Origin: Promethearchaeota archaeon
GTDB lineage: Archaea > Asgardarchaeota > Lokiarchaeia > Sigyniarchaeales > SOKP01
DNA: 46,930 nucleotides
Direction of reading: 5' to 3'
Assembly (NCBI GenBank): GCA_016839705.1
Contig: JAEOTR010000063.1
Coordinates: 1-46,930, forward strand
Below the pieces are notes generated by a model. It saw nothing but the letters and a program-made list of their open reading frames with translations, did no database searches and had not been told where the DNA came from. The first letter of the stretch is position 1; every line of letters starts with the position of its first letter. A program made the position numbers and the translations under genes. This document shows positions 340 through 41,048 of the stretch, one piece after another.

Positions 340-2316
340 TTATTCTACAATGCTGCTATATTCATTATACAAAGCATCAATGATCGTCTCGAAAGCTTCC
401 TTAACTCCTTGACTGGTTTTTACTGAAGTTAAATAGTAGCCTAAAAGGTTATTTTTTTCAGCAAATTCTTGAACTTTTGAAAAATCAATATTGTTTTCAT
501 CTATCAGATCCGCTTTATTAGCAATTATTATTATCGGAATATCTCCGCAAGTTCTTTTTATTTGTTCATGCCAATCTGAAATTTGAGTAATAATATCCCT
601 CTCTTGATCATCCTCTCTAAGGCTGTAAACAATTATAGCCGCTCCACTATTATTAAAAAAGTCTTGATGAAGAAAATGAAATTTTTTACCACCCGCGATA
701 TCCCAAAAAAGTAATCTAACTATATCACCTTCGATTTCTTTGTCAAATACTGAATACTGAGCTCCAATTGTCTTAACATAATCCTTTTTAAAAATGTTTT
801 TAGTGTATCGACTAATTAAGGAAGATGTACCTGCTCTCGTATCTCCTACAACAGCTATCTTAAACCTTAATTTATATGGGTACTTCTTTACTGGATTTTG
901 ATAGTTTGTTATAATTCCTTGGGAAAGTGAAGAGAGAACGTTTTCAAAACCCTCTGAATCTGTTTCCGATATTTCAATATAGGCAGAAATATTTAATTTC
1001 ATCGCAAGAGATTTACCTTGTTCTGTGGTTATGTTTTTACCCTCACCTAAACCTACAAGAAATATAGGCATGTGAGAATAGGTATCTTTCATTTCTGGTC
1101 GATTAAATTTTAGATCAGTAGCTTCTTTCAACATAGAGTAAAAGTCTTTAATTAGATTAATCGAATCTGGATCACTTTTATCATAAACTAGTATTGCTCC
1201 GCTAGCACCCTTACAATATGATTGGATGTAAGATCTCCAGCGCATTTCAGACGAAATATCCCAGAGTTGTAATTTTACTTTTTTATCAGAAATGTCTATG
1301 GTTTTTGGATAAAATCCTACACCCATAGTGTCTCTTTGACCTTCCCCTCCTGGAATAGGAGGCATTAGGAGTAATTCAGTTGCCTGTTCAGATTTTAAGC
1401 CTAAAATAACCACTTTAAAAATGAAATCATAAATTTTTGCCAGATCACTAAAATGAGCTAAAAAACTTTCATATCTTCGGATTTTTTTGCGAAGTTCATA
1501 TAACTGAGTTCTTCCCGTACTTGAAAGTTTAATATCTAAGACACGTTTTAAAATAGCTTCCGCTTGACCTTTACTTATAGTTTTCTCATATTTATTATAG
1601 AGATCATGTGCTATTTTCGAAATTAACCAATCCAAATCATTTTCTTTGAGAAGATACTCAATTATATGTATTGTTTTAACTTTTGGGTCTCTAATCCATG
1701 CATCATCTACAATCATTTCTTGTTCTATATCGGTTACCAAATTCTCTTTACTATAATCACATTTTTTAAGAAATTTTTCTAAATTTTTTAATTGGGCATC
1801 AGTCAAAAAATCAATTTTAATTGTTTGACTAATTCGGAGGGTTGTGTCTTGACTTATAATGCAAACTCCTCTAGGTGATAAGTCTATAACTTTAAAGGTA
1901 ACATCTCTACCACTCCCTAAAGATATGAAAACTAAATCATCAACTGTTATAGGATAGTTGGTTAACTCTCTTTTGACAATACTTTCGACTCGTGGGATTT
2001 TTCTTAATTCTATATTAACTGGTGCTAAAGTAACTTTTTGAGCAGGTTGGGGTGTAACTTTTTGTATTTCTATTGTATCATTAATGATTGTGCCTGTATT
2101 TTTCCTTAACCTTGAATCCATTCGAATAATTCCCAATCCTTCATCTGATGGATCATTTCGCATAGCAACACTCACACTTTCTTTTTCCCCATTAAGTTTT
2201 ATAAAATCCTTATGTTGAATGCTTAATTTCTTCATAACATCCGAATCAATTCTTATAATATTACGTCTGATGTCTCTTGATTTAGCTTTATGAATACGTA
2301 ATATAATTTGATCCAT
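340..2316 (-). CDS. CDC48/VAT N-domain fused to a helical linker and two degenerate Rab-like GTPase domains
   Basis: aa 1-165 resemble CDC48_N and CDC48_2 (RDIRRNIIRID, IIRMDSRLRKNTG, AQKVTLAP, FKVIDLSP). Domain 1 has FKVVILG, LQLWDIS, GASGAILVYD. Domain 2 has FKIAVVGDTRAGTSS, WDIAG, NKAD, TSVKT. No AAA domain. Confidence 0.85.
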   Translation of the reverse strand: MDQIILRIHKAKSRDIRRNIIRIDSDVMKKLSIQHKDFIKLNGEKESVSVAMRNDPSDEGLGIIRMDSRLRKNTGTIINDTIEIQKVTPQPAQKVTLAPVNIELRKIPRVESIVKRELTNYPITVDDLVFISLGSGRDVTFKVIDLSPRGVCIISQDTTLRISQTIKIDFLTDAQLKNLEKFLKKCDYSKENLVTDIEQEMIVDDAWIRDPKVKTIHIIEYLLKENDLDWLISKIAHDLYNKYEKTISKGQAEAILKRVLDIKLSSTGRTQLYELRKKIRRYESFLAHFSDLAKIYDFIFKVVILGLKSEQATELLLMPPIPGGEGQRDTMGVGFYPKTIDISDKKVKLQLWDISSEMRWRSYIQSYCKGASGAILVYDKSDPDSINLIKDFYSMLKEATDLKFNRPEMKDTYSHMPIFLVGLGEGKNITTEQGKSLAMKLNISAYIEISETDSEGFENVLSSLSQGIITNYQNPVKKYPYKLRFKIAVVGDTRAGTSSLISRYTKNIFKKDYVKTIGAQYSVFDKEIEGDIVRLLFWDIAGGKKFHFLHQDFFNNSGAAIIVYSLREDDQERDIITQISDWHEQIKRTCGDIPIIIIANKADLIDENNIDFSKVQEFAEKNNLLGYYLTSVKTSQGVKEAFETIIDALYNEYSSIVE

Positions 2317-2349
2317 TTTTTATCACATCGATATTCATATTTTGTAATC

Positions 2350-2937
2350 TTATTCAGAATTAAGGGTCTTATAATTCAATGCTTCTATAATTGCATTAAA
2401 AGCTTGTGTAACTCCTTTTCCTGTTTTTGCTGAGGTTTTATAGTACCCAAGAAACGAATTTTTTTTTACTATATCCTGAATCGAAGAATCATTTATTTTA
2501 GTCTCATCTACTAAATCCACCTTGTTGGCGAATACAACTATTGGGATTTCCCCACAATATTTAGTAAGAAGCTTGTACCAATATGTTATATGATTAAAAC
2601 TTTCCCTACCGAATTCATTTTCTTCAAGACTGTACACGATTATAGCTGCTCTACTATTTTTAAAGAAATTTGGTCTTAAAAAGTGGAATTTATCTTGTCC
2701 TGCGATATCCCAAAACATTAACCTAATTTTATCATTATTGATTTCTTTATCATATGTATAGAATTGTGCCCCTAGAGTCTTTATATATTCCTTTTTGAAA
2801 GAACCTTGAGTGTATTTCATAATTAAGGTTGTCTTACCTACTCTTCCATCCCCTACGATTGTTACCTTATATCTAAATTTTCGACTAGTATCAAGTTCCC
2901 TAATTCCATTAATTCCTTTTTTTTTCTCTACTTCCAT
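2350..2937 (-). CDS. Rab-like small GTPase with intact motifs
   Basis: G1 GDGRVGKTT, G3 WDIAGQ, G4 NKVD, G5 TSAK. Start moved from 3006 to ATG at 2937 (MEVEKK), which has GGAGGA upstream. The longer start overlaps the operator array. Confidence 0.92.
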   Translation of the reverse strand: MEVEKKKGINGIRELDTSRKFRYKVTIVGDGRVGKTTLIMKYTQGSFKKEYIKTLGAQFYTYDKEINNDKIRLMFWDIAGQDKFHFLRPNFFKNSRAAIIVYSLEENEFGRESFNHITYWYKLLTKYCGEIPIVVFANKVDLVDETKINDSSIQDIVKKNSFLGYYKTSAKTGKGVTQAFNAIIEALNYKTLNSE

Positions 2938-3038: not shown

Positions 3039-3192
3039 AGTTTCATATTTAAATCTTTGGATCCTTGACAAAAATATCTAAAAGAATTGCTTTCTCTATA
3101 ATTACTTCAGTAGAATTAGGTTTTATGGTAAAATTAATATGAATACCTAATTATTATTTAATTTGAAATTAAAGAAATTTAAGATATCAATC

Positions 3193-3570
3193 ATGTATCG
3201 AATCGAGAAAATCGGGGAGAATAAGTTTTACATAAAAGCATTAGGCTTATTCCCACCCCCAGTAGCAAAACGTTTCATAAAGGAGTTTAGAAAGAAGACA
3301 AAAAAATTAAATGAATTCTCTGTAATTGTGGATGGTGTAGATGTTATTTTTCTTAATCTCGAATCGTTCGGAATTATTTTAGACTTCCTTAAAGAAAATA
3401 ATGAGAGATTAGGCAAATCTTCTTGGATAATATCCAAAAATCCACCTTTAGATAAAGAAATCGAAACACTTTTAGAAAGAGCTGATTCTCCTAAAAGGAA
3501 AATTGTCCAAACTCTTGAAGAAGCAAAGGAATGGATTGGGGTTAGTGATATAACAATAATCCGGGATTAG
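3193..3570 (+). CDS. Hypothetical protein, STAS/SpoIIAA-like fold
   Basis: About 125 aa alpha/beta pattern with VIVDG and terminal TLEEAKEWI. Probable start is ATG at 3193 rather than TTG at 3163. Confidence 0.5.
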   Translation: MYRIEKIGENKFYIKALGLFPPPVAKRFIKEFRKKTKKLNEFSVIVDGVDVIFLNLESFGIILDFLKENNERLGKSSWIISKNPPLDKEIETLLERADSPKRKIVQTLEEAKEWIGVSDITIIRD

Positions 3571-3596: not shown

Positions 3597-4397
3597 TTAA
3601 TCTAATCTTAATCGCTCTTTACATAAATCAATAGCCTTTTGATTGTTATCTACCCCTATCCATTTCCTTTTTAATTTATTCGCTACAGCTAAAGTTGTAC
3701 CTGTTCCACAAAAAAAGTCAGCAATAAGTTCTCCTTCATTTGAAGAGGATAGAATGATCCTTTCAAGCAATTTTTCTGGTTTTTGGGTTGGATATCCTAA
3801 ATACTCTTTGGATCTAGTTCTAGTTTGATATGAATATATATCATTCCAGACATCCCCTACTGCATTTCCAGGTTTTTCGTCTAAATATTGTTTGCCACCA
3901 CGTCTTTTTCTATAGATACGTCCATCCTCATCCTTATATCGAAACATTTTCTTGATATAGTCTTTTTTATAGGGGATATATTGCTTATTGAAAGTGTATA
4001 TATCAGATTTAGTATAATACAAGATTGTATCATGTTGGCGTACCCATCCTTTAACCTGACTTTTGAATCCGGATACACTTCCCACATTCCATATAATCTC
4101 TCTTCTAAAGTATTTTTTATGGAAGATATTATCGCACAAGAGTTTAAGATCAAATACAGCATTCGCATCTGAATGACAATAAAAGCTACCAGAACTCTTT
4201 AGAAGTCGATGCATTTCTTTTACTCTTAGCTCCATAAAATGTAAATAATCTTCTAAGGAGTTCCATTTATCGTCAAATTCTTTATAATCAACACCGGTAT
4301 AGAAAGGAGGATCTATGTAAATTAGGTCAATAAACTCAGAGTTAAGTTTTCTTAAGAATTCTAAATTTTCTGCCAAGTATACTGTATTCAATTTCAT
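3597..4397 (-). CDS. Site-specific DNA methyltransferase, N4-C/N6-A, beta class
   Basis: DLIYIDPPF precedes ADFFCGTGTT, and YPTQKPEKLLERII is present. Probable start MKLNTVY at 4397. Confidence 0.93.
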   Translation of the reverse strand: MKLNTVYLAENLEFLRKLNSEFIDLIYIDPPFYTGVDYKEFDDKWNSLEDYLHFMELRVKEMHRLLKSSGSFYCHSDANAVFDLKLLCDNIFHKKYFRREIIWNVGSVSGFKSQVKGWVRQHDTILYYTKSDIYTFNKQYIPYKKDYIKKMFRYKDEDGRIYRKRRGGKQYLDEKPGNAVGDVWNDIYSYQTRTRSKEYLGYPTQKPEKLLERIILSSSNEGELIADFFCGTGTTLAVANKLKRKWIGVDNNQKAIDLCKERLRLD

Positions 4398-4417
4398 TAG
4401 GAAGTTAAATAGAACTA

Positions 4418-4819
4418 ATGATTTATACAATTATAATGAGTAAGGAACGATTAAATAAGAATTTCTTGGATGAATTTAAGGATTATGATTTTTCTAAGAT
4501 TCAAGAGGATAAAATCTATCTTGTTGGATCCATACGCTTTAAGGATTATTTCATCAAAATTGAATCGATTTTACAAATTCTATTAAAAAAAATTGTATAC
4601 ATTTGTTCTGTTGATGGATTATTAAATAAAGAAAAGTTTTCCCTGATGGAATGGGAAAGCTTACAAGAAATTGCCTTAAGAAAGTTAGAAGAACAAGACG
4701 CGATATTAGTTTTAGATGTACATAATTATATTGGGGAACATTCTAGGGAAGAAATCGAACTATTTGAAAAAAAATATAAAAAACCAATATATTACCTAAC
4801 CAAATTAAAGAGAAGTTAG
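4418..4819 (+). CDS. Nucleoside 2-deoxyribosyltransferase-like (flavodoxin-fold) protein
   Basis: KIYLVGSIRF, RKLEEQDAILVL and YIGEHSREEIE fit the NDT/DUF4406-like pattern. Confidence 0.55.
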   Translation: MIYTIIMSKERLNKNFLDEFKDYDFSKIQEDKIYLVGSIRFKDYFIKIESILQILLKKIVYICSVDGLLNKEKFSLMEWESLQEIALRKLEEQDAILVLDVHNYIGEHSREEIELFEKKYKKPIYYLTKLKRS

Positions 4820-8144: not shown

Positions 8145-9527
8145 ATGCCATATCACATTGCTTTTGATCTAGCTCATAAGCCTAGAGGCCGAATTGATGA
8201 GAATTTAACTGAAGTTCGAGATCAATTAAATTCGAATGATTTCATTTGTTATAATTTTTTAGAAGTTCCAATAACCGAAGAATCATTGATGCCATATGAT
8301 ATTTTAGTATTTGTTTGTCCTGATTTTTCAAGAATCACTGCTAACGAAATCACTCAAATCGTAAAATGGGTCAAGAATTCAGGTGGTGGGTTATTATTGT
8401 TATCTCACGCAGGTGGTGATAAAGGGCGTGGGAGCAATTTATCTGAAATTTCCGAGCAATTCGGCATATTATTTGAGAATGATCAAGTCCTAGATGAGAC
8501 AACTAATTTGGGGTTAGAAAACATTCCTTTAATTTCTACTTTTAACATCCCTCATCCTATTACAGCTAATATCGAGTCTTTGTGTTATAGATCTGGATGT
8601 TCTCTTTCAATAGTGGGAAGTGGAGCATTTTCAATAGCAGATTCTAATGAGACATCTGAACCTTTTTCCTGTCCACTAGTTTGTGTAACAGAAATCAATA
8701 ATGGAAGAGTTTGTTGTATTGGAAGTTATGAGATGTTTAGAGATAAAATAGGAGGAGGATTTCAGTGTTCTGATCATCCAAAACTTACCTTAAATATATT
8801 TAAATGGTTAGTATCTGATTATCGTATGGAATTAAGATCGAAAAGTGAAGTTCCTATACCTATAACTGTATCTCAACCAGAAAGCAATGCTTCTACAACA
8901 GAAACTCAACCGGAAATTCAAACATCTTCAACACCGAGTGAACATCGAACAATAAACATTGATTTTTCGATGAAAATTTCAAAAAAAAGTGAATTAATTG
9001 AATTATTAAAGATATTTCAGAACCAAATAAACACAATAAAAACGACCATCGATAAGTTAATAAAAACATCAACAGAATCAGATGGGGATATAATTGAAGT
9101 CAATCCTGAGGAAATCTCTCAAATACAGATAAGCGATAAGGATGCTCAAGTTAGTGAAGAGGAGCTTCTTGAGCCACCAAAAATAAAAAGTGAAAAAATT
9201 AGAAAAGACGATACGGATCTTACAGCTTTACCCCCAAAACCAGAAAGTATGTTGCAGGATGTACTTGAAGACATTGACGAAATCGGTCTAAAGCCGGTAC
9301 CTAAATTGAAAACTAAAACTAGAACAAAAAAAGAATTAAAAAACGAACGAGAAGGATTAGAATCAAAGCTAAGCTCTGTTCAGGATCTATTGGATTTTAT
9401 TGGAAAAAGACATTCATCTGGAAAGATTGATGATGATGAATATTCAAAAAGATCAAAGAAGCTGCAAAATGATATTAAGAAAACAAAGAAAAAGATCACT
9501 GTTCTCGACAAAATTTTAGAAAAATAA
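8145..9527 (+). CDS. GIFT (GldG/IFT52/DUF4350)-like domain, disordered linker and C-terminal helical hairpin
   Basis: IAFDLAH, YDILVFVCP, EITQIVKWVKNSGGGLLLL, NLSEISEQFGI, HPIT and GRVCCIGS, then a P/E/K-rich linker and GKIDDDEY hairpin. Confidence 0.7.
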   Translation: MPYHIAFDLAHKPRGRIDENLTEVRDQLNSNDFICYNFLEVPITEESLMPYDILVFVCPDFSRITANEITQIVKWVKNSGGGLLLLSHAGGDKGRGSNLSEISEQFGILFENDQVLDETTNLGLENIPLISTFNIPHPITANIESLCYRSGCSLSIVGSGAFSIADSNETSEPFSCPLVCVTEINNGRVCCIGSYEMFRDKIGGGFQCSDHPKLTLNIFKWLVSDYRMELRSKSEVPIPITVSQPESNASTTETQPEIQTSSTPSEHRTINIDFSMKISKKSELIELLKIFQNQINTIKTTIDKLIKTSTESDGDIIEVNPEEISQIQISDKDAQVSEEELLEPPKIKSEKIRKDDTDLTALPPKPESMLQDVLEDIDEIGLKPVPKLKTKTRTKKELKNEREGLESKLSSVQDLLDFIGKRHSSGKIDDDEYSKRSKKLQNDIKKTKKKITVLDKILEK

Positions 9528-18865: not shown

Positions 18866-20059
18866 CTAAGATTTATTTAAATTAGGAAGGAATTTCTCAT
18901 TCGACAACTCAACAAGTGAATTGGAATACTCCATTATTTTTTTCGCGATTTCTGGGTTTTTGAGCATTTGAACTGCTACTTTTTCACCCCTATCCCATAG
19001 TAAATATGGTGTATCTTCATAAGGTACCTTTTCTTTAACTTCTTTTATCCAACTATCTGGTAATTCATTTGGTAAATCTATATCAAGCATTTTCGCTAAA
19101 AATATTGACCAAGCTCTTGGTACAACGGTCATTAAATAACCTCCTCCTCCTACAGCGAGCCATTTATTGTGACAATATTCACGGGCGCAAGTCTTGAGTG
19201 TTTGGGCGATGTCCCTATAGCCTGATAATGAAAAACCCATCTGAGTTAAGGGATCATCAAAATAAGTATCTACTCCTAACTGAGTTATTAAAATGTCTGG
19301 TTTATATGCTTCTAATAATTTCGGTGTTGTTCTTCGGAATAATTTTATGAATGTTTTGCTATTTGTCCCAGGTACCAGAGGAAAATTAATTGAATAACCT
19401 TTACCTTCCCCTTCCCCGATTTCATTAATGAATCCCGTCCCTGGAAAGAGAAATCGTCCATCTTGATGATATGATATAGTTAATACATTTGGATCTTCAT
19501 AGAATAACCATTGGACTCCATCACCATGGTGACAGTCAATATCAACATAGGCAATTCTTATATTTTCTTTTAAGGTTTTCAAATGATGGATTGCTACAGC
19601 GATATCGTTAAAAATACAAAATCCTGATGCTTTTTCTTTCCCTGCATGGTGAAGGCCTCCTGCAATGTTAAAAACAACTTTAAATTCCTCATCATTCCAG
19701 ACTTTATCAGCTGCAATGATACTTCCTCCTGACACTAAGGCCGCAGCCTCATACATACCTTTAAAAATGGGATTGTCTCCCGGACCTAAACCATAGATGT
19801 AAGGAGGAATTGTTCTATCACTTGGATCTATACTTAATTTTTTAATAATATCCACGTATTTTGGTGAATGCGCACGTTCTAGCTCCTCTCTCGTCGCTAA
19901 TCGAGGTTTAAAAAGCTCGAGCCTCTCATTTTCTAAAAGTTTTAGTTTCTCCATTAAACTATATGTTAATTTGAGTCTAAGTGGTCTAAAGGGGTGATCT
20001 CCCCCGAAATCATATTTTAGAAAATCTTCAGAGTAAATTAATCCAACTTTCTCCACCAT
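18866..20059 (-). CDS. acuC: Zn-dependent deacetylase, class I HDAC/AcuC family
   Basis: HPFRPLR, GGLHHA, SGFCIFND, DIDCHHGDGVQ, FPGTG, DPL and GGGGY. Confidence 0.93.
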   Translation of the reverse strand: MVEKVGLIYSEDFLKYDFGGDHPFRPLRLKLTYSLMEKLKLLENERLELFKPRLATREELERAHSPKYVDIIKKLSIDPSDRTIPPYIYGLGPGDNPIFKGMYEAAALVSGGSIIAADKVWNDEEFKVVFNIAGGLHHAGKEKASGFCIFNDIAVAIHHLKTLKENIRIAYVDIDCHHGDGVQWLFYEDPNVLTISYHQDGRFLFPGTGFINEIGEGEGKGYSINFPLVPGTNSKTFIKLFRRTTPKLLEAYKPDILITQLGVDTYFDDPLTQMGFSLSGYRDIAQTLKTCAREYCHNKWLAVGGGGYLMTVVPRAWSIFLAKMLDIDLPNELPDSWIKEVKEKVPYEDTPYLLWDRGEKVAVQMLKNPEIAKKIMEYSNSLVELSNEKFLPNLNKS

Positions 20060-28034: not shown

Positions 28035-29618
28035 CTACATAAAAGCAATTACAACATTATATTTCTTAATTTCCGATTCTGCTAAGGCTTTCCCTAGTGG
28101 GCTTAAAGTTACAATATCATTGCTTTTTATTTTTAGAGAAGTCAATTTGATATCTGGGTCTTTTAGTGAAGGCATATAAGGGTTCCAATAAATTTCTTTA
28201 GTCATCGGATTGGTGATCATCCATAATTCCGGATCTAATTTATGTGCTGAAATTTCCATTGCTTTGAAAATATAACCAACATCTGCATCAAAAGGTACAA
28301 CAAGTTGAACATTCTCCTCACCTTCAATTTTGCCACAAGCGAGACAATCATCTCTTTTTAAAACATGGAGATGATCAAATTGACCATAGATCCCATTGTA
28401 ATTAACATATGGTGGTTCCATTGGATCTCCGATATTTCGGCCCTTAACCCTGAATAAAAGTTTAAGAGCTTCTTGAGATTCGATACTGGAGATAATAGAG
28501 CTAACTGTTTGGATTGCTGCAATTTTATTTCCTAGAATATTTTCCATTTCTTCGAATTTATAGTCTGGTCCAAATGTTTCATTGATATTAGTCTTCCAAT
28601 CTTCAATTTCTTTTTCAGTTAAGGATTCTCTCTCTCCTTCGGCAATATTCTCATTAAATACTCTTTCTCTTAATTTTTCTAATTCAATTTGAGCAATTTC
28701 TTTTAGTTTAAGAACTTCATCATTTAAATTGAGATCTGGTTTATGCCCATACTCTTTTTCGAATTCAACCTCTGCTTTTATTACGCAATGATTTCTATTA
28801 CGAGGTAATCCTTTTAAAGTACAAGCTGCGACTAATTTATCATCAGCAGGGGGAATTGGTACTAAACACCTATAACATGGTGTTTGATCTAAAACTTCTG
28901 GAGCATATTTCCAATCAAAAACCATCTCAATTTCTTTCCTAATTTTTCTAATGACAGGGTTTATGTCTTTTTCTTTGATTCGTTCAATTTCTTCTTCTAA
29001 TTCCTCTATTCTTGTTTGAGCTTTGAAGTATTCAGGATATCCCATTTCATTAATATCCCATATCCTCGCTTCTACCATATTTTCGATTTCCCTTTCTCTG
29101 TTCTTATAATTTATCCCTGAACCTTCAGGAATTACAATTTGAACATGCCCCTCAAATCCAACTGTCCCTCCCTCTACCATTGGTTTCTTCATTCTAAGGC
29201 AAATTTTATTTAAGTCTAATCTTGCGTTAAAATTATCTAAAGCGGCGATAACCACATCTGATTCTTCATAGACCGACATTGGTAATTTTTGAAGTTTTTC
29301 AAAATAGAAATCCACATTTAGATACGGATTCATTTCTTTTAACCGTTCGGCTGCAACTTCCGCTTTAGACCTTCCTTCATCTCCGGGTCTAAAGAGCATT
29401 TGTCTCGATAAATTTGAAGTCTCGATTGTATCTAAATCGATCAAAATAAGCTTACCAATACCCATTAGCGTGAAGTCTTTAGCAATTTCGCATCCCAACG
29501 CTCCGATTCCTACAATCATAATGCATCCATTTGAGATAATTGATTGATCCCATCCTTCGATGAGTTGCTGCCTTGCATACATTCGCGACTTGACAATATC
29601 TTCAATTTTTTCTGTCAT
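28035..29618 (-). CDS. Ubiquitin-like-activating enzyme E1 (ThiF family, UBA3-like architecture)
   Basis: YARQ, VGIGALGCE, DLDTIETSNLSRQMLF, ALDNFNAR, PCYRC, ACTLKGLPRNRNHC (catalytic Cys motif), CLAC and a C-terminal probable ubiquitin-fold domain. Confidence 0.93.
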   Translation of the reverse strand: MTEKIEDIVKSRMYARQQLIEGWDQSIISNGCIMIVGIGALGCEIAKDFTLMGIGKLILIDLDTIETSNLSRQMLFRPGDEGRSKAEVAAERLKEMNPYLNVDFYFEKLQKLPMSVYEESDVVIAALDNFNARLDLNKICLRMKKPMVEGGTVGFEGHVQIVIPEGSGINYKNREREIENMVEARIWDINEMGYPEYFKAQTRIEELEEEIERIKEKDINPVIRKIRKEIEMVFDWKYAPEVLDQTPCYRCLVPIPPADDKLVAACTLKGLPRNRNHCVIKAEVEFEKEYGHKPDLNLNDEVLKLKEIAQIELEKLRERVFNENIAEGERESLTEKEIEDWKTNINETFGPDYKFEEMENILGNKIAAIQTVSSIISSIESQEALKLLFRVKGRNIGDPMEPPYVNYNGIYGQFDHLHVLKRDDCLACGKIEGEENVQLVVPFDADVGYIFKAMEISAHKLDPELWMITNPMTKEIYWNPYMPSLKDPDIKLTSLKIKSNDIVTLSPLGKALAESEIKKYNVVIAFM

Positions 29619-29774
29619 TCAAAAATCCTCAGTTTTTATAAACATACTATAATAATTTTATTTTCGAAATTTAAACTCTTTGAGTTTAGAATTTAGAGTA
29701 TAAGGATGTAATAATATTTAAAACTAATTTAAAACTAGTATTAGAATTTATTTATTATATAGTTCTTTTTGGGC

Positions 29775-30260
29775 TTATTTCTTCTCTCTTATGGGAAAAT
29801 AAAGATCAAAGATCCATTTATTAGGCATTGGTTCAAGTGGGGTGATTAGTTCTTCTAACCCGGGTTCATTATCTTCATCCCTTTCAAATTGCGAAGTTCC
29901 AATCCATTCATTAAATAAATACATCCAAGTTGGGAAGATATTCTCTACGCCTTGACATCTCGCCACAGCATATAATCCACCAGGTATTTCTTTTATTTTG
30001 ATTACACCTTCAGGCTCAACATTGGTATCCACACTGATTAAACATTCATAACCATATTCACCTTGAGGATCATCTGGATTAGGAGGAGGGTTGTTATAAC
30101 CGAAGTGATAATGCTTTGCGGGATTAGAATAGAACCCCTTAGGCTCTCCCCAATCACGTATTGTTTTTATAGCATCTTCTTCAGGAGTTTTGCTAATTGC
30201 ACGATAATATGCAACTCGCATAGGTGCAAGCTTCACAATTCGTATTATAATTTCATTCAT
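29775..30260 (-). CDS. GyrI-like effector-binding protein
   Basis: LAPMRVAY, IPGGLYAV, YLFNEW and DLYFPI. Confidence 0.88.
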   Translation of the reverse strand: MNEIIIRIVKLAPMRVAYYRAISKTPEEDAIKTIRDWGEPKGFYSNPAKHYHFGYNNPPPNPDDPQGEYGYECLISVDTNVEPEGVIKIKEIPGGLYAVARCQGVENIFPTWMYLFNEWIGTSQFERDEDNEPGLEELITPLEPMPNKWIFDLYFPIREKK

Positions 30261-30339
30261 TCTAATCTTCTAATATGTTTTATTCTAATTTAAGGAGAAG
30301 TCAGTATCAAATTAATAAAATGATTTGGAAAAAAGTATT

Positions 30340-33300
30340 TTATTTCTTTTTTTTTTTCCCGGCTTCTTTAATCATTCTTTTTAAACTATCCACATCCTCT
30401 CTTTCTTTTGCCTGTTGTAATTTTTCTTTAAATTTTACGCTTTCTTTTTCTTTTTTTTCTAATTCTTGAATTAATTCTTCCTTAATATTTATAAGTTCTC
30501 CAATTTTTCCACGAAAGTCTTTTGCTTCTTTTTTAGTCTTTACTTTTTCTTCCTCTTCAAATGCTCTTTGTTTTTCTCTACTATCTTGGATTAGTTTCAT
30601 TATTTCATCAGCGGACTGACGAACTTCACTAATGTTTTCTTTCAATTTCTGATCTTCAATTCTTATTTTATCTGCTTCTCTCTCTCTTTGTTTTTCTAGT
30701 TGTTCTTGAATAGAATTGATTCTCGATTGTTCAGCTTTTACTCTCTTTTCCAAGATTTTCATATTATTGATTTCTGTTTCAATGTACTTTAGTTCTTCTT
30801 GCCATCCGATTTCTTTAAATTTCAAAATAGCTTCCTTAAAATTTACATCAGCTTTCTTGAAATCATGGTAAGCTGACCATTTTTTTCCTTCATCTATTAA
30901 TCTTAGTCCTTCATCTCTTATTTGGTCAGATCGCTGTTTAGTCAATACTAACTCTCTGTATTGTCTTTCTTGTTCTATCTTTAGTTTTTCTTGTTCTAAT
31001 CTTCTTATTCTGACTTCCTCTTGAAACGCCTCATATTCCCTTTGCCTCTTAATTTGAGTTGATTTTTCTAGTCGCTTTCGTTCAAGGTAACTAGCTTTTT
31101 CATGTTGTAAATCCTTGATTAATGAATTTAAATTATTAATTTCTGGTTCCCAGCCAATATTCTCTGCTAAAACATTCCTTGCCAGAATATATAAAGAAAC
31201 AGCTTTCTCATAATCCGGAATTGGTTGTTTTAAATAAGTCCCGGCTTCTTCTAATAATGAATAAGCAGATTCTCTTATATTCATCTGTTCCTGTATAACT
31301 CTTTCTCTTTCTTGAAGAGCTAATTGTTGTGCTTTTTTCTTTTCTCTTTCTTGTCTTTGTCGTTCTTCGACTAGTAATTGTAAATCTTTTTCTTCCTGTA
31401 CTTTATCCAGTTCTCTCTGAAACGTTAGTTTCTCCATTTCTTCATTATCTTTCATAATTTGTTTAATTTTTGTAACCATACTCTTAACGCTATCTGGAGG
31501 AAAATGGATTTCATTTAAAATAAATTCGGCTCTTCTATACGTTTCAATTGCCTTGTTATATTGTAATTGTTTTAAGAAATCTTCAGCCTTATCTAAAACT
31601 TTAAATGCTTCTTGTCTTCTTTGTTCTATCAACACTTTCCTTTGTTCCATTTTTTCTAATTGTATCTGCTTATTTTTTAAACGCTCTTTTTCAGTATTTG
31701 CTTCTTCAGAAACTTTTTGTTGAAAAATCCATTCCTCTCTTTCCTTCTGTAGAGAGTTTTCTAGATTTCTTTGTTTTTGCAGGAGAGATTCACTTTTTCT
31801 CCCTTGAACCTTTTGAATCATTTCCCTAAGAACCTCAGTAGGAAATCTGATTTCGTTAAGGATTATTTCTGCAGAATAATAATATTCTAAAGCTTTATCA
31901 TATTGAGCCTGTTTCAAGTAAGTTTCAGCTTCTTCAAGAAGATTAAAAGCTTCATTTCTTCTTCTTTCGCTATACTGATGTTTTTCTCTCTGTTTTTCGA
32001 TATCCATTTCTTTAGCTTTAGTCTTCAAGTCGTTAATTTTTATATCTTCCCGGATTTTTTGCTGAAACTTTTGTTCTTCGCGTTCGTTTTGAAGTAAAAT
32101 TTCCATTTCCTTCTGCTTTTTTAAATTATTTTCTTTATTCTTTTCCTGAATTTTGTAAATCATTTCTTTGACTGCACCTGAGGGGAAACCGATTTCATTT
32201 AATAACAATTCTGCCTGACGATACTTGTCAATAGCTTCTTCATACTTTCCTTCATTTAAATTCTTTTCAGCACTATCCATCAGATTAAATGCTTTTATTT
32301 TTTGTTTTTCTAATATTTTTTCCGTTTCTTCACGTTTTTGAATTTCAATTTGCCGTTTTCGTAATCTTTCTTTTTCCCTTTGAGCAGAGTCAATAATCTT
32401 TATTTGGAATTTATCATCTTCTTTTTGTCTTTCAGCTAATAAACGTTGTTCTAATTCTTTATTCTTTTCTAAATCTCTTTTGCGAGCCTTAATCGCATCT
32501 GTAGTTTCATATAATAATTTCATATAATCGCTGGTCCACCCAATATCGGTTAAAACCGTAATAGCATTGTTGTATTTTGTTAAAGCATCATCAAAATTAT
32601 TATCTTTAAGTAAATTGGCTCCGTCATCAATTAATTTAAATGCACTTGCTTGTTTAAGTAGACTTTGAGCAGAGGTAATTTTTTTTCTTTCTCTAACTTC
32701 TATTTCCTTCATTACCATTTCTTTTTCACTTTGTTTATATTGACGAATTTTTTCTAAGAAGTCGTACTGAGCTTTTTCATCTTCTAAAGCCTTTTCTAAC
32801 GATTTTTGTTTTATCAAATCATTTTCTTTTTTCCTATTTTGAATATCAAGAATTGTTTCTTGGATGATAGGTATTTCATCAGTCCATTGGATTTGAGCAA
32901 AAATATTTGTTACTTCATAATATAATTCTAGTGCTTCGTCATAATTCGCCTGTGAGAGAAAAGCTTGAGCATCCTCTAGCAATTTAAAAGCATTCTCTTT
33001 CTGTTTCTCACGGTAAGCAAGTTCTTTTTCTTGTTTTCTTAAAACAATTTCTTTATTTTTTAATTCCTCTTGTTGGATTTTCATTTCCTTTGCAATTTGG
33101 TCTTGAAAAATCTTTTCCAACTTTTCTTGTTCTACAACTTCATAAAATTCTCTTTGCTTTTTTAGTTCAGCTTCACGTTTTTTGTCTTCAATTACCTTGA
33201 TAGAGTTTTGGATTATATTTATTTCATCGTCCCAATTAATCTCCTTAAAAATCTTAACAGCATCATTATAGAATTTTATTGAATTATCAAAATTTCCCTT

Positions 33301-36300
33301 TTCCAAGTGAGTTTGCGCTTCTTCCAATATATTAAAGGCTTTTTCTCTCTTTTCTTCAGTTATTAATCTAAACTCTTCTTGTTGTTTTAATTTTTCTTCC
33401 TTTTCAATCATTTTAAGCTGTTCTAATCTAACCTTTTCAACAATTTGTTGTTGGAATATTAAATCCTCCTGTTCTTTTCTCAAATTTTCTTCTAGTTGAG
33501 TAATTTTCTTTATTTCTTCCGTTTTTCTTTTTTCTTGAATTTTATATATAAAATCTTGAACTATTTCCGTTGGGAAACTAATTTCACTTAGAATCAATTC
33601 AGCTTGTCGATATTTCTCTATTGATTGGTCATATTTTCCTTGGTTCAACAAATCTTCTGCATTATTCATTATTGCAAATGCTTCTGATTTACGAGCCTCA
33701 ACACTGGATAATGAAATTTCTCGTTTTTGAAATTGAATTTTTTTTGATTGAATTGTTTCTTGTTCTTTTTTCAAATAATCAGCAATTTTAACTTGAAATA
33801 GTTCATCTTCTTTTTGATGTTTCAAAGCTATCTCAAATTCATTTTGCTTTGCAATTTCTTTCTCACGCTTTCTTTCTTGTATGGTATTAATCGTATCATT
33901 TAGTACTTTTAAATAGGATGTTCCCCACCCAATATTTTTCAGTAAATCTATAGCTTCATTATATTTTTTTACAGCTTTATCATATTCTTCCGCCTTAAGT
34001 AATTCCTCTCCAGTTTCAATCATTTTAAAGGCTTCTTGTTGCTGAGCTAAATTCTGAGCAGAAATAATTTTCTCTTGTTCTAAGGGTTTCGACTCTTTTA
34101 AGGCAGCCTGGGTCTCCCTTTCTCTTTGATACTTAATTTGCTCAATAAAAGATCGTTCTGCAGCTTCTTTCGTAATAGCTCTTTGTAATTTTTTTTGATT
34201 ATATAATATACTTTCTTGCTTTTTTTGCTCAATATCTTGTATTCCTTGTTTTAATAATGGAATCTCATCTAGCCATTGAATTTGGGTAAAAATATTTATT
34301 ACTTTATGATAAACTTCAAGGACTTCATCATAATTACCTTGGGACGCTAATTTTTGAGCATTTTCTAACAAATTAAACGCTTGTTTTTTTCTTTCTTCTC
34401 GGTAAGCAAGTTCTTGTTCTCTTTCTCTGAGTATAATTTCATTTTGTTTTAATTTTTCTTGACGTGATTTTAACTCCTTTGTTATTTTCTCTTGAAAAGA
34501 TTTTTCTTGCTTTTCTCTTTCTAAGTCTGTTTGCATTTTGATCTGATTTTGTAATTCTGCTTCCCGTTTTTTATTTTCAATTTCCATTATTGAATTTTGA
34601 ATTAAGCTAATTTCATCTTGCCATTGAGCATCGGCAAAGAAGCTAATAGAATATTGTAAAATTTCAATTGCCTCATCATAATTTCCTTTAGATACCTCTT
34701 CTTTTGCTTGTTCAAGTAATTTAAATCCAGCCTTCCTTCTTTCCTCCCGATATTCTAATTCTTCTGCTCGTTCTTTTAATGCAATCTCTCGTTTTTTTAT
34801 TTTTTCACGTTCTTGATGTAGATATTTAGCAGTTTGCATTTGGAAGGCTTCGTCTTCTCTCTGTCTTTCAAGTGCTTCCTGCATCTTTTTCTGTTCACTC
34901 AATTTCTGGTTTCTTTGTAATTCTTCAACTTCAAAAATAGAGTTTTCAATTACTGAAATCTCATCCTTCCACTGAATCTCAGCAAAGATATTTCCTGCAT
35001 TTTGATAAGCTATAATAGCATTGTCATAATCTCTTTTTTTAATCAAATCAATAGCAGAATCTAAAAACTGGAATGCATCATTTTTGCGTTGCTCAAAAAT
35101 TTTCAGCTCTTTTTCCTTATCTTTTAATATAATCTCCTTCTTTTTTATACGCTCACGCTCTTTGGTTAGTTGACTAACAATCTGGCTTTGAAATTCGAGT
35201 TCTGCCTCTTTTCTTTTTTCTAATTTCTGTTGAATTTCATATTCTTTTTTAAATTGTGAATTTTTAATTTTTTGAACATTCGAAATCGTATTGTTGATAT
35301 TAGAAATATAGGTTTCCCAACCAGGCCCCATTTGCTCGAGTAATTTTAATGCTTCTTGGTATTCATTAATCGCATCATCGTACCTTTTCTCTTGTAAGAT
35401 ACTATCCGCAATACTAAGTAAATTAAAAAATTCTTTTTCTTTTTTTGACTCCTCACTTCTCCTTTCTTCATATAATCTTTTTCTGGAATCAACTTCCATT
35501 ACTGATTGTAGATTCTGTTCTTTTTGTTTTCTATAAATTGTTTCTTGAAGAGTTGTTAAATCTTTTTGCCGTTTTTGTTTTAATTGATCAATTTTTCCTT
35601 CTCTTTCCTGTTTTCCTTTTATTCCTTCTATCAAATTAAAAATAGGTTGGATATATGAATCCCAATCAATGGATTTAAATAAGTCTACAGCTTCTTCAAA
35701 TTTTTGAATTGCTTGTTCGTAATTTTTCTCCCTTTCAAAACGTTTACCAATATCTATAGTATTGAAAGCTCTTCTTTGGATAAGTTCTTCTCTTTCTTTT
35801 CTTTGTTCAAATTCGATTAGTTGTTCTTTTTTTAACTCTGATTCCAAGTTTTCAGATTTCTTCGTAATTAAGCTTTCTAATACATCAATTTGCCTTGCTT
35901 CTTGTTGTGATTGGTAATATTCAAATTGTTCCTTGTCTTTCTTGAGCTTTTCAATAATCACCAAAATATTTTGAGTTTGTTCTTTCCATCCTATCGAATT
36001 TAGTAATTCTATGGCTCTTTCATAATTCATTATTGCCTGATCGAATTTTTTCTCTTTTTCAAAAGCTTTTGCCTTATCAATATGAGCAAATGCATGGTTT
36101 TGTGATTCTTCCTCTTGCTTTTTTCTAATCCTATATCGAGCTATGGATGCCGCTTTTTCTGTGCTTGATTTCTGCCCAAACATATCCACGATTTCAGGTT
36201 TACTCTCATCTAATCTTTTAAGATATTCTTCAGATGGTCTTAATTCTTGTTCGGGTACCTGTTGAGTTTGTTGTTCTCTTCTTAAAATGTCATTAAGATT

Positions 36301-36705
36301 TTTTATTTTTATTTTAATATTCTCTAATTGAGTTTCAGCCCAACCAGATTGGGAAAGTAAATTAATAGCAGATAAATATTGTTGATTTGCTTCTTCAAAA
36401 AGTCCGTCTAATTCCAATTTTTTAGCTGCTTCTAATAAAGCAAAGGCTTGATCTTGTAGCTGTTCAACTTGAGTTTTAATCTGAGCCTGTTGGTATATCT
36501 TCTCTTTTTTCAAGGAGACTTTTAGTTCTTCTATTCTTTCATAAATGTCACTAATCCTATGCATCAAATAACCGCTTTGTTTTAGGAAATCCACTGCTTT
36601 TTCATAATTTGATATAGCCTGTTGAATATTTTTCTCTTCCTCAAATTTTTGAGCAATTTCTAAGGATTTAATAGCTTCTTGAGCTAATTGTTCTGGATTT
36701 TGCAT
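30340..36705 (-). CDS. Giant helical repeat protein (18 TPR/MIT-like units with charged helical spacers)
   Basis: Repeated AFxLLExA...YDxAIxxYxxAxxI...W/FP units separated by E/K/Q/R-rich stretches. Probable start MQNPEQ at 36705. Confidence 0.85.
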   Translation of the reverse strand: MQNPEQLAQEAIKSLEIAQKFEEEKNIQQAISNYEKAVDFLKQSGYLMHRISDIYERIEELKVSLKKEKIYQQAQIKTQVEQLQDQAFALLEAAKKLELDGLFEEANQQYLSAINLLSQSGWAETQLENIKIKIKNLNDILRREQQTQQVPEQELRPSEEYLKRLDESKPEIVDMFGQKSSTEKAASIARYRIRKKQEEESQNHAFAHIDKAKAFEKEKKFDQAIMNYERAIELLNSIGWKEQTQNILVIIEKLKKDKEQFEYYQSQQEARQIDVLESLITKKSENLESELKKEQLIEFEQRKEREELIQRRAFNTIDIGKRFEREKNYEQAIQKFEEAVDLFKSIDWDSYIQPIFNLIEGIKGKQEREGKIDQLKQKRQKDLTTLQETIYRKQKEQNLQSVMEVDSRKRLYEERRSEESKKEKEFFNLLSIADSILQEKRYDDAINEYQEALKLLEQMGPGWETYISNINNTISNVQKIKNSQFKKEYEIQQKLEKRKEAELEFQSQIVSQLTKERERIKKKEIILKDKEKELKIFEQRKNDAFQFLDSAIDLIKKRDYDNAIIAYQNAGNIFAEIQWKDEISVIENSIFEVEELQRNQKLSEQKKMQEALERQREDEAFQMQTAKYLHQEREKIKKREIALKERAEELEYREERRKAGFKLLEQAKEEVSKGNYDEAIEILQYSISFFADAQWQDEISLIQNSIMEIENKKREAELQNQIKMQTDLEREKQEKSFQEKITKELKSRQEKLKQNEIILREREQELAYREERKKQAFNLLENAQKLASQGNYDEVLEVYHKVINIFTQIQWLDEIPLLKQGIQDIEQKKQESILYNQKKLQRAITKEAAERSFIEQIKYQRERETQAALKESKPLEQEKIISAQNLAQQQEAFKMIETGEELLKAEEYDKAVKKYNEAIDLLKNIGWGTSYLKVLNDTINTIQERKREKEIAKQNEFEIALKHQKEDELFQVKIADYLKKEQETIQSKKIQFQKREISLSSVEARKSEAFAIMNNAEDLLNQGKYDQSIEKYRQAELILSEISFPTEIVQDFIYKIQEKRKTEEIKKITQLEENLRKEQEDLIFQQQIVEKVRLEQLKMIEKEEKLKQQEEFRLITEEKREKAFNILEEAQTHLEKGNFDNSIKFYNDAVKIFKEINWDDEINIIQNSIKVIEDKKREAELKKQREFYEVVEQEKLEKIFQDQIAKEMKIQQEELKNKEIVLRKQEKELAYREKQKENAFKLLEDAQAFLSQANYDEALELYYEVTNIFAQIQWTDEIPIIQETILDIQNRKKENDLIKQKSLEKALEDEKAQYDFLEKIRQYKQSEKEMVMKEIEVRERKKITSAQSLLKQASAFKLIDDGANLLKDNNFDDALTKYNNAITVLTDIGWTSDYMKLLYETTDAIKARKRDLEKNKELEQRLLAERQKEDDKFQIKIIDSAQREKERLRKRQIEIQKREETEKILEKQKIKAFNLMDSAEKNLNEGKYEEAIDKYRQAELLLNEIGFPSGAVKEMIYKIQEKNKENNLKKQKEMEILLQNEREEQKFQQKIREDIKINDLKTKAKEMDIEKQREKHQYSERRRNEAFNLLEEAETYLKQAQYDKALEYYYSAEIILNEIRFPTEVLREMIQKVQGRKSESLLQKQRNLENSLQKEREEWIFQQKVSEEANTEKERLKNKQIQLEKMEQRKVLIEQRRQEAFKVLDKAEDFLKQLQYNKAIETYRRAEFILNEIHFPPDSVKSMVTKIKQIMKDNEEMEKLTFQRELDKVQEEKDLQLLVEERQRQEREKKKAQQLALQERERVIQEQMNIRESAYSLLEEAGTYLKQPIPDYEKAVSLYILARNVLAENIGWEPEINNLNSLIKDLQHEKASYLERKRLEKSTQIKRQREYEAFQEEVRIRRLEQEKLKIEQERQYRELVLTKQRSDQIRDEGLRLIDEGKKWSAYHDFKKADVNFKEAILKFKEIGWQEELKYIETEINNMKILEKRVKAEQSRINSIQEQLEKQREREADKIRIEDQKLKENISEVRQSADEIMKLIQDSREKQRAFEEEEKVKTKKEAKDFRGKIGELINIKEELIQELEKKEKESVKFKEKLQQAKEREDVDSLKRMIKEAGKKKKK

Positions 36706-36912
36706 TTTAATTGAATCTAAATAATATTTAATTGGTTTAAGAAATAACAATAATTTTTCTTACTTTAATTTATCCCCACTTAGTAATTAAACTTTTTATA
36801 TGGTGATAATTATTTAAAGTAAAATATCGAGTACGTTAATTGTTTTTCTATTTACTACAAGTAAGCATTCACATTTTAAAAAAAAATAATAAATAAATGG
36901 TAAATTTAAGGT

Positions 36913-39532: not shown

Positions 39533-40066
39533 TTAATGAACAAAAGTTCCTATTATTTCCCGAATCCTGTTGATATAATAGAAACTATGATTAATGATCT
39601 GTTTTAAATCTACATTATCATAAAATGCAATTGTTAATATAGCTGCTTTTCCTGCCCATACACAAATTATTTTACCTTTTGCAGAATTGATAATAGTTGA
39701 TTGTAAATCTCCATGTTCACATTCAATTCCAACACGTTCACTTAGTGATATTATTGCTGCTGTCATTGCCCCGATACGCGTTTCATCCCAATCAGCTTCC
39801 GGATTAAAAACAATTGGATAACCGCCAACCCCTATTAAGGAAATATTTCTTACTCCTTCAATCAACTTCAGCATCTTTAAACATGGTTTTATTTGTTCTA
39901 ATAATTTCTTTTGAGTGTTAGTTGAAAATTCTTTAGACCACCTTGCTAATGTTGTTTGACTAACATTAAACTTATTTTCAGTTTCATAATATGTATGATC
40001 TTTTAAATATTCTAATATTTCTCGCTTTTTTTCATTTGAATATCGTTTTCCTTGCATTTCGATCAC
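39533..40066 (-). CDS. HTH fused to a roadblock/LC7 domain
   Basis: YSNEKKREIL..FNVSQTTLARW HTH, then DETRIGAMTAAIISLSERVGIE..GDLQ..AGKAAIL roadblock. Confidence 0.85.
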   Translation of the reverse strand: MIEMQGKRYSNEKKREILEYLKDHTYYETENKFNVSQTTLARWSKEFSTNTQKKLLEQIKPCLKMLKLIEGVRNISLIGVGGYPIVFNPEADWDETRIGAMTAAIISLSERVGIECEHGDLQSTIINSAKGKIICVWAGKAAILTIAFYDNVDLKQIINHSFYYINRIREIIGTFVH

Positions 40067-40523
40067 TTTGAATAATAAAGTAGTATTAGTATTTAAATCT
40101 TTCTATCAATTTCCAAGAATATAAGTATTAGTAAAGCATTAGTAAATTGAATCTCTATATTAAAAATAATGTTAGTAACTAATATTATCCACTAAAAAAA
40201 CAAGCAATTGCATTTATGCAGATTTTTTGTTTTAAAGAAAAATAACTCATTTATTTGTTTTTAATTTAAAAAAATTCTATTACCTCAAAGGAAAAGGAAA
40301 TTTAAGGATTTATCAAAATTTAAAAACTGTGAGTTACTTTAAATTCATAACAAAATTTAATGGATACAAAAAAATTAAATATAATACCGTTCATAAAATC
40401 TTAAAATTAATTTGTATTAATAAATTAAATAAACTATTAAATATCATAATTTTAATATTAATTTATAGAAAAAACAAAATAATTAATTACAATAATCAAA
40501 TAATACGACGTGTGTGGAGCTTA

Positions 40524-41048
40524 ATGTCAAGTTTTAAACTGAAAGTATTACTTACTGGCGCGGCTGCCGTTGGTAAGACAAGTCTGGTTCAAAGGTTTAT
40601 CAAAAATAGATTCCAAGCTAATTATAAATTGACCGTAGGCGTTGATATTTTAACAAAGGATGTGGAATTCCGAGCAGGTGAAATAGCAACTTTAAGCATT
40701 TGGGATATTGGTGGTCAACAACGTTTCGAATTTATACGTAGTACTTTCTATAAAGGAGCTGCAGGAGCGTTATTAGTTTTTGATTTAACACGAGAACAAA
40801 CTTATGCTGAAACGCGAAAATGGCTTACAGAAATAAGACAATTCGCAGGTGAGTCAATTCCCTTTGTATTTATCGGAAATAAAGCGGATCTAATCGAAGA
40901 TGTAGGTTTAGTAATAGATCGGGATGAAGCTCGTTCGTTTGCAGAAAATGAGGGTAGTATTTATATTGAAACCTCTGCTAAAACGGGAATAAATGTCGAT
41001 GAGGCATTCACTGAGCTTACAAAACGAATAATCGATTCCCGAATGTAG
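40524..41048 (+). CDS. Rab-like small GTPase
   Basis: GAAAVGKTS, TVGVD, WDIGGQ, GNKAD and ETSAKTG. Start at ATG 40524. No C-terminal Cys. Confidence 0.95.
   Translation: MSSFKLKVLLTGAAAVGKTSLVQRFIKNRFQANYKLTVGVDILTKDVEFRAGEIATLSIWDIGGQQRFEFIRSTFYKGAAGALLVFDLTREQTYAETRKWLTEIRQFAGESIPFVFIGNKADLIEDVGLVIDRDEARSFAENEGSIYIETSAKTGINVDEAFTELTKRIIDSRM

Follow-up and report, generated by a model that had tools for sequence, protein, structure and literature searches.

The class i pseudoGTPases AAGAB (PMC12490416) and p190RhoGAP (domains pG1 and pG2; PMC5593906) are multidomain proteins in which the Ras fold is conserved and the G motifs have been lost, and the psGD of AAGAB is a precedent for a pseudoGTPase that serves as a binding surface (PMC12490416). 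In bacteria, Death-like domains are found as N-terminal adaptors on NTPases, GTPase switches occur in such systems, and the animal members of the Death superfamily are thought to be of bacterial origin (PMC8195603). The unfoldases of the CDC48/p97/VAT group have an N-domain and two AAA+ domains with Walker A/B motifs. The same N-domain fold is present in Ufd1, a protein without motor. For the Rab-like GTPases, of which Asgard genomes contain dozens, hardly any partners are known.

We have analyzed a stretch of 46,930 nucleotides (the window) from a sediment Loki-type archaeon (assembly of 3.36 Mb, 31% GC), the genome of which contains three full CDC48 genes and codes for small GTPases in more than 60 ORFs. 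Located on the reverse strand at 340..2316, a gene codes for a 658 aa protein composed of a CDC48 N-domain, a helical domain with a predicted Death-like fold, a pseudoGTPase (D1) and a Rab-like GTPase domain (D2). The initial annotation had described it as a CDC48-type N-domain without AAA motor fused to two Ras folds. Pfam bore this out, with matches to CDC48_N, CDC48_2 and, in two stretches, Ras, and with no AAA family matched in the 658 aa. The motif losses quoted there for both GTPase folds are likewise all present in the sequence. The fusion is neither unique nor decaying: it was found in 22 protein clusters including its own (the other 21 at 52–86% identity in the protein search), and dN/dS was below 1 for every domain, mostly 0.1–0.5 in pairwise comparisons. 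A public contig matches positions 1352-2668 without difference, covering the upstream gene, the spacer, the N-domain, the helical domain and the start of D1, and the D1/D2 junction and P-loop of D2 are spanned by two more, also without difference. As these bridging contigs belong to one study and possibly to the source sample, independent support for the fusion comes from the other 21 clusters. The full-length predicted structure had a pTM of 0.42, so no fixed packing of the domains is predicted. No paper on this architecture was found in the literature searched, mostly outside subscription journals, and the initial annotation knew of no description either.

The N-domain (1822..2316, reverse strand; aa 1-165) comprises a double-psi barrel and a second subdomain. 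Its assignment to CDC48_N held: this family matched aa 6-88 (E 8.3e-21) and CDC48_2 matched aa 111-163 (E 1.2e-7), both above cut-off, and the VAT N-domain structure 1cz4 was matched with E 3.6e-16. The model TIGR01243 covered aa 5-163 only, with 90 bits for a cut-off of 803, and the two AAA+ domains with Walker A/B motifs of CDC48/p97/VAT are absent from the protein. Identity to a Lokiarchaeia CDC48 of 744 aa was 58% over 168 aa, and in trees the N-domain of the fusion is nested within the group of this paralogue, a copy of which is found on another contig of the same genome (C25). By these trees, the N-domain is derived from the 744 aa Lokiarchaeia CDC48 paralogue. In the best tree the N-domains of the fusions occupy three separate positions, which may reflect capture or conversion, more than once, from the parent CDC48 gene; their monophyly in Loki was not rejected (AU test, p 0.23). 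Compared with the parent CDC48 they are on longer branches; their dN/dS values are mostly 0.16–0.48 (one pair 0.74), with up to ~1.7 synonymous changes per site.

D1 (898..1428, reverse strand; aa 297-473) has a Ras fold in which the P-loop and G4 are lost. Its motifs read GLKSEQATE (aa 306-314), WDISSE (aa 352-357) and GLGE (aa 422-425). The P-loop was intact in 0 of 128 homologues, and the G4 columns of these 128 show G-L-G in place of NKxD. Judged by its motifs, D1 is a pseudoGTPase in every homologue and, as in class i pseudoGTPases, the small-GTPase fold is kept while P-loop and G4 are lost. Whether the degenerate motifs are under purifying selection was a check proposed in the initial annotation; D1 is motif-less in 128 of 128 and yet conserved, and for the domain dN/dS is below 1. 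In D2 (346..870, reverse strand; aa 483-657) the G2 Thr, G4 (NKAD) and G5 (TSVKT) are kept; the P-loop Lys is replaced by Thr in GDTRAGTSS (aa 491-499), and switch II reads WDIAGG (aa 538-543). The D2 P-loop Lys is kept in 29 of 34 homologues, the switch-II Gln in 5 of 34 and NKxD in all 34, and loss of the Lys maps to a single clade of five members that includes the protein studied here. The description as a double pseudo-GTPase is therefore valid for D1 throughout and for D2 within this five-member clade, and the catalytic and binding motifs of D2 are not lost throughout the family. An origin of D1 and D2 by internal duplication was rejected, as they share 23% identity and D1 comes from another Rab-like subfamily. 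These domains and the upstream GTPase are, by sequence, Rab-like and not Rabs; neither the fusion protein nor the upstream GTPase has a C-terminal Cys prenylation motif.

Located 33 bp upstream, on the same strand (2350..2937), is a gene for a Rab-like small GTPase of 195 aa from its ATG (Pfam Ras, E 7e-41). It had been reported to have all motifs intact, and G1 to G5 are indeed present, with the P-loop Lys and the switch-II Gln, as they are in seven orthologues, so that its motifs suggest an active enzyme. The orthologues form their own clade, with dN/dS of 0.15–0.32. This GTPase and D2 belong to the same Lokiarchaeia subfamily, which has ~8 members in the host genome. It is a close paralogue of D2, as proposed (52% identity), but not the closest, since one gene of the same genome reaches 54% and two others 53%; a direct sister relationship was rejected, the two being in separate clades. 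Of 12 fusion loci whose upstream DNA could be seen, 6 have this gene and six do not; it also lies beside two loci without N-domain. The switch-plus-scaffold pair of the initial annotation is thus a trait of the subclade to which the protein belongs and not of the family. The upstream gene adjoins all five D2 genes without Lys, and it is also present at a sister protein whose D2 keeps the Lys. As loss of the Lys is one event, its match with the upstream gene amounts to a single observation; compensation within the Lys-less clade would fit this pairing. A complex predicted from helical domain plus D1 (aa 166-476), the upstream GTPase, GTP and Mg had a score of 0.00 and was counted neither way.

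Between the N-domain and D1 lies a region (aa 168-293) that the initial annotation did not mention and that carries the strongest conservation of the protein. It begins with a six-helix bundle (1525..1815, reverse strand; aa 168-264) that belongs to no Pfam family. The most conserved segment (1438..1578, reverse strand; aa 247-293) includes the final helix of the bundle, a short loop and a long helix, basic in character, that runs into D1. An I, an S, a G, an L, R269, R276, K278 and F289 are invariant in the columns of the 128 homologues, and dN/dS was lowest for aa 229-293, mostly 0.02–0.18. Heimdall- and Hod-type homologues retain the segment, and so do four short members of ~285 aa in which bundle helices 3-4 are missing.

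By sequence, the helical domain is what defines the protein family. With the profile of aa 168-293 we identified 133 clusters, 90 of them with helical domain and D1 (~320 aa), 14 with helical domain, D1 and D2, 22 that carry the CDC48 N-domain, 3 to which a third GTPase is added and 4 fragments. In three proteins there are three GTPase folds in a row, a motif-less D1 and two with intact P-loops. Among genome representatives, the family was found in 37 of the 134 other members of the taxonomic family and in 8 of the 53 others in the genus; it is present in 9 of 54 genomes of the genus, five with N-domain, and three further Asgard families contribute 8 genomes. Plasmids and viral contigs yielded no homologue. 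When the region shared by all forms was used for a tree (midpoint root), the forms with helical domain and D1 were outside and those with D2 inside. The N-fusions form one group (91/87) in which several N-less proteins are nested, two of them complete at the 5′ end, indicating that the N-domain is dispensable. Helical domain plus D1 (90 of 133 clusters) comes out of this comparison as the oldest unit. To this unit, as the sequences show it, D2 from a locally expanded subfamily was added C-terminally and the N-domain of the resident 744 aa CDC48 N-terminally, in the genus from which the window comes. The simplest history would be core, then D2, then N-domain, with later losses or recombination. 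Both additions are under purifying selection where present, and several lineages are without N-domain. As a separate observation, a Candidatus Hodarchaeota genome codes (L049:2807-3895) for a helical domain with a motif-less GTPase, the first half of which resembles a Rab-like subfamily of its host and the second half the Loki D1; transfer or recombination is a possible origin of this mosaic.

Genomes of Heimdallarchaeia type have the helical domain joined to zinc ribbons in place of D1. Four such loci, without Pfam match, code for the helical domain with one or more Cys/His zinc ribbons, and one genome has two of these homologues in tandem. A Candidatus Heimdallarchaeota protein (P0330; L052:786-3191) consists of a CDC48 N-domain, the helical domain and a zinc ribbon, and its gene immediately follows a Rab-like gene that is intact and co-oriented; Rab-like GTPase, CDC48 N-domain and helical domain thus recur here, differently ordered, in another class. 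The N-domain of P0330 has 38% identity to the CDC48s of its own genome and 29% to the 658 aa fusion, and the best tree places it with CDC48s of Heimdall. The AU test (p 0.062 and 0.22) did not reject that the N-fusions of Loki and Heimdall have a common origin, so that an independent origin is without statistical support and, the case being one protein, we take it as a lead for a recurring functional link and not as proof.

The reading that we prefer, with a probability of about 0.42, is that of a motor-less, non-enzymatic adaptor that would tie CDC48 clients to a small-GTPase switch. The N-domain would bind clients or cofactors of the parent CDC48, and clients could be held or delivered without a motor. 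D1 would bind no nucleotide and offer a fixed protein-binding surface, by analogy with class i pseudoGTPases, and the helical domain would be an oligomerisation or partner-binding module. D2, with Lys kept and Gln lost, would usually be a slow GTP-binding switch in cis; in the five-member clade without Lys, the co-oriented intact paralogue would probably be the switch in trans. The architecture series, the order in the tree, dN/dS below 1, a D1 that is motif-less in 128 of 128 and still conserved, the nesting of the N-domain in the parent CDC48 group and the Heimdall fusion of CDC48-N and helical domain all favor this adaptor. The dispensable N-domain, the patchy family, the lack of ubiquitin or proteasome neighbors and the pTM of 0.42 weaken it.

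The main rival, somewhat unlikely in our estimate, is that only the core of helical domain and D1 is functional. The N-domain, D2 and upstream gene would then be accretions that add little, products of Asgard GTPase domain shuffling that selection keeps folded. Most family members have the core alone, N-less forms are nested among the fusions, the upstream gene comes and goes, a third GTPase appears in 3 clusters and, relative to the parent CDC48, the N-domains have longer branches. Narrow unique architectures are also common in Asgard (10.1101/2020.10.19.343400), which counts in the same direction and tempers any surprise at the one found here. Against such accretion, however, stand the N-domain dN/dS values (mostly 0.16–0.48), the retention of the fusion in 22 clusters and the second CDC48-N fusion of the helical domain in another class.

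The next two rivals concern the helical domain. Chains of the Death superfamily match 73-90 aa of its predicted fold (Death/CARD/DED/PYD-like), with scores above those of any HTH protein. Death, CARD, DED, PYD or EAD profiles were not listed for it in the Pfam scans or the PDB profile search, though such searches often miss remote members of the superfamily. No usable match to the domain came from Foldseek against PDB and viral models or from the ESM Atlas, whether queried with structure or with features; sequence searches with it in Pfam, PADLOC and PDB gave only noise, and with the EAD1 and Death profiles no protein of the own genome scored above cut-off. Nor did we find a mention of Death-like domains in Asgard in the literature covered, mostly outside subscription journals. 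That the basic, HTH-like conserved segment binds nucleic acid or membrane, as a regulator or tether, is quite unlikely. A presumed resemblance of the segment to IS630-type HTH and LEM motifs was supported by no search, no HTH family is among the recurrent Pfam matches of the domain, and the Death-superfamily chains outscore HTH proteins over more residues (73-90 aa).

Very improbable is an immunity or conflict module in which a Death-like effector-associated domain would sit on a GTPase threshold switch, as in the bacterial ternary systems. The predicted fold and the patchy distribution would suit it, but the genome (93% complete) has one copy of the helical domain, where bacterial systems usually carry a second on the effector, together with a linked ternary core. 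Moreover, there is no effector gene nearby, the chromosomal neighborhood is stable (39 loci), the sequences are conserved and not diversifying, and PADLOC gave no match beyond noise. A chimeric assembly or decaying pseudogene is ruled out: the gene is close to the contig end and this copy is degenerate in both GTPase folds, but 21 other clusters have the fusion, four relatives at 75–86% identity share the Lys loss, contigs bridge the junctions, and dN/dS excludes decay.

No ubiquitin, proteasome or effector genes were found among the neighbors of the family in the 39 loci, so the gene neighbors give no support to the link with ubiquitin-type adaptors that had been suggested. A sigma-70 promoter scan, with a model unsuited to archaea, remained at chance level, and no RNA data set containing the sequence is listed among the sequencing runs. 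Within the window, a single-copy gene at 3163-3570 (forward strand; 125-135 aa, without Pfam or NCBIfam match, STAS/SEC14-like by eye) is found on the opposite strand at most 3.5 kb upstream in 17 of the 39 related loci, in two genera. At 3597-4819 there is a divergent pair formed by a N6/N4 DNA methyltransferase, found again in 10 related loci, and an uncharacterised gene of 133 aa, found in 7. Farther away are an IFT52 GIFT-domain protein (8145-9527, forward), a histone-deacetylase-family protein (18866-20059, reverse), a MIT/TPR-repeat protein of 2136 aa (28035-36750, reverse) two genes from a ThiF/E1-family protein (527 aa), a roadblock gene head to head with a further Rab-like GTPase (39533-41048) and a 640 aa protein with an Arf/Rag-like GTPase domain and flanks without assignment (43551-45473).

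The family offers a defined, soluble and testable case: a prokaryotic pseudoGTPase that is conserved, was built up in steps and is physically attached to the part of CDC48 that binds clients. Its bearing is more on Asgard cell biology than on eukaryote ancestry, as the CDC48 fusion covers part of one Lokiarchaeia genus and one Heimdall protein, and no eukaryotic counterpart of it was found. A bolder version, which we consider unlikely, takes the helical domain as a true Death fold native to Asgard (Loki, Hel, Hod, Heimdall) that would mediate homotypic assembly and was twice joined to CDC48-N beside a Rab-like GTPase, giving a GTPase-gated adaptor that feeds clients to CDC48. It would connect small-GTPase signalling with the CDC48 segregase in a prokaryote. 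With a Death fold here, Archaea would join bacteria and animals, to which this superfamily has been traced so far.

Compared with the known systems, D1 is like AAGAB and p190RhoGAP (PMC12490416; PMC5593906) in its conserved Ras fold without G motifs within a multidomain protein, and p190RhoGAP also has several GTPase-fold domains in one chain (PMC5593906). D1 is, in contrast, archaeal and independently derived from a Lokiarchaeia Rab-like subfamily, it is always preceded by the helical domain, there is no GAP domain, and its nucleotide state is read from sequence. With the CDC48/p97/VAT unfoldases the fusion shares the complete two-subdomain N-domain (58% identity to the Lokiarchaeia CDC48); it differs in having no AAA ring and in an N-domain recently captured from one paralogue and joined to GTPases. 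Death-superfamily and bDLD/EAD domains are the best structural matches of the predicted six-helix bundle, and EADs are, like the helical domain, N-terminal to an NTPase fold (PMC8195603). ROCO proteins and AP-GTPases, such as DAPK1 (Roc-COR-Death), combine a Ras-like and a Death-like domain in one chain, as is predicted for the fusion, but the fusion has no COR, LRR or kinase, its GTPases are Rab-like and the domain order is another; COR is not matched, D2 ends the protein and Ras outscores Roc. Also comparable are the Asgard roadblock and longin GTPase fusions (PMC10933270): the present fusion is likewise a lineage-specific one of Rab-like domains, in a host with more than 60 small GTPases; there the partners are others, and the section of that source covered does not mention the present architecture. 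With a CDC48 N-domain as one partner and, as the other, a helical domain that is still unclassified, the fusion is a new and apparently undescribed variant among the multidomain small-GTPase proteins of Asgard.
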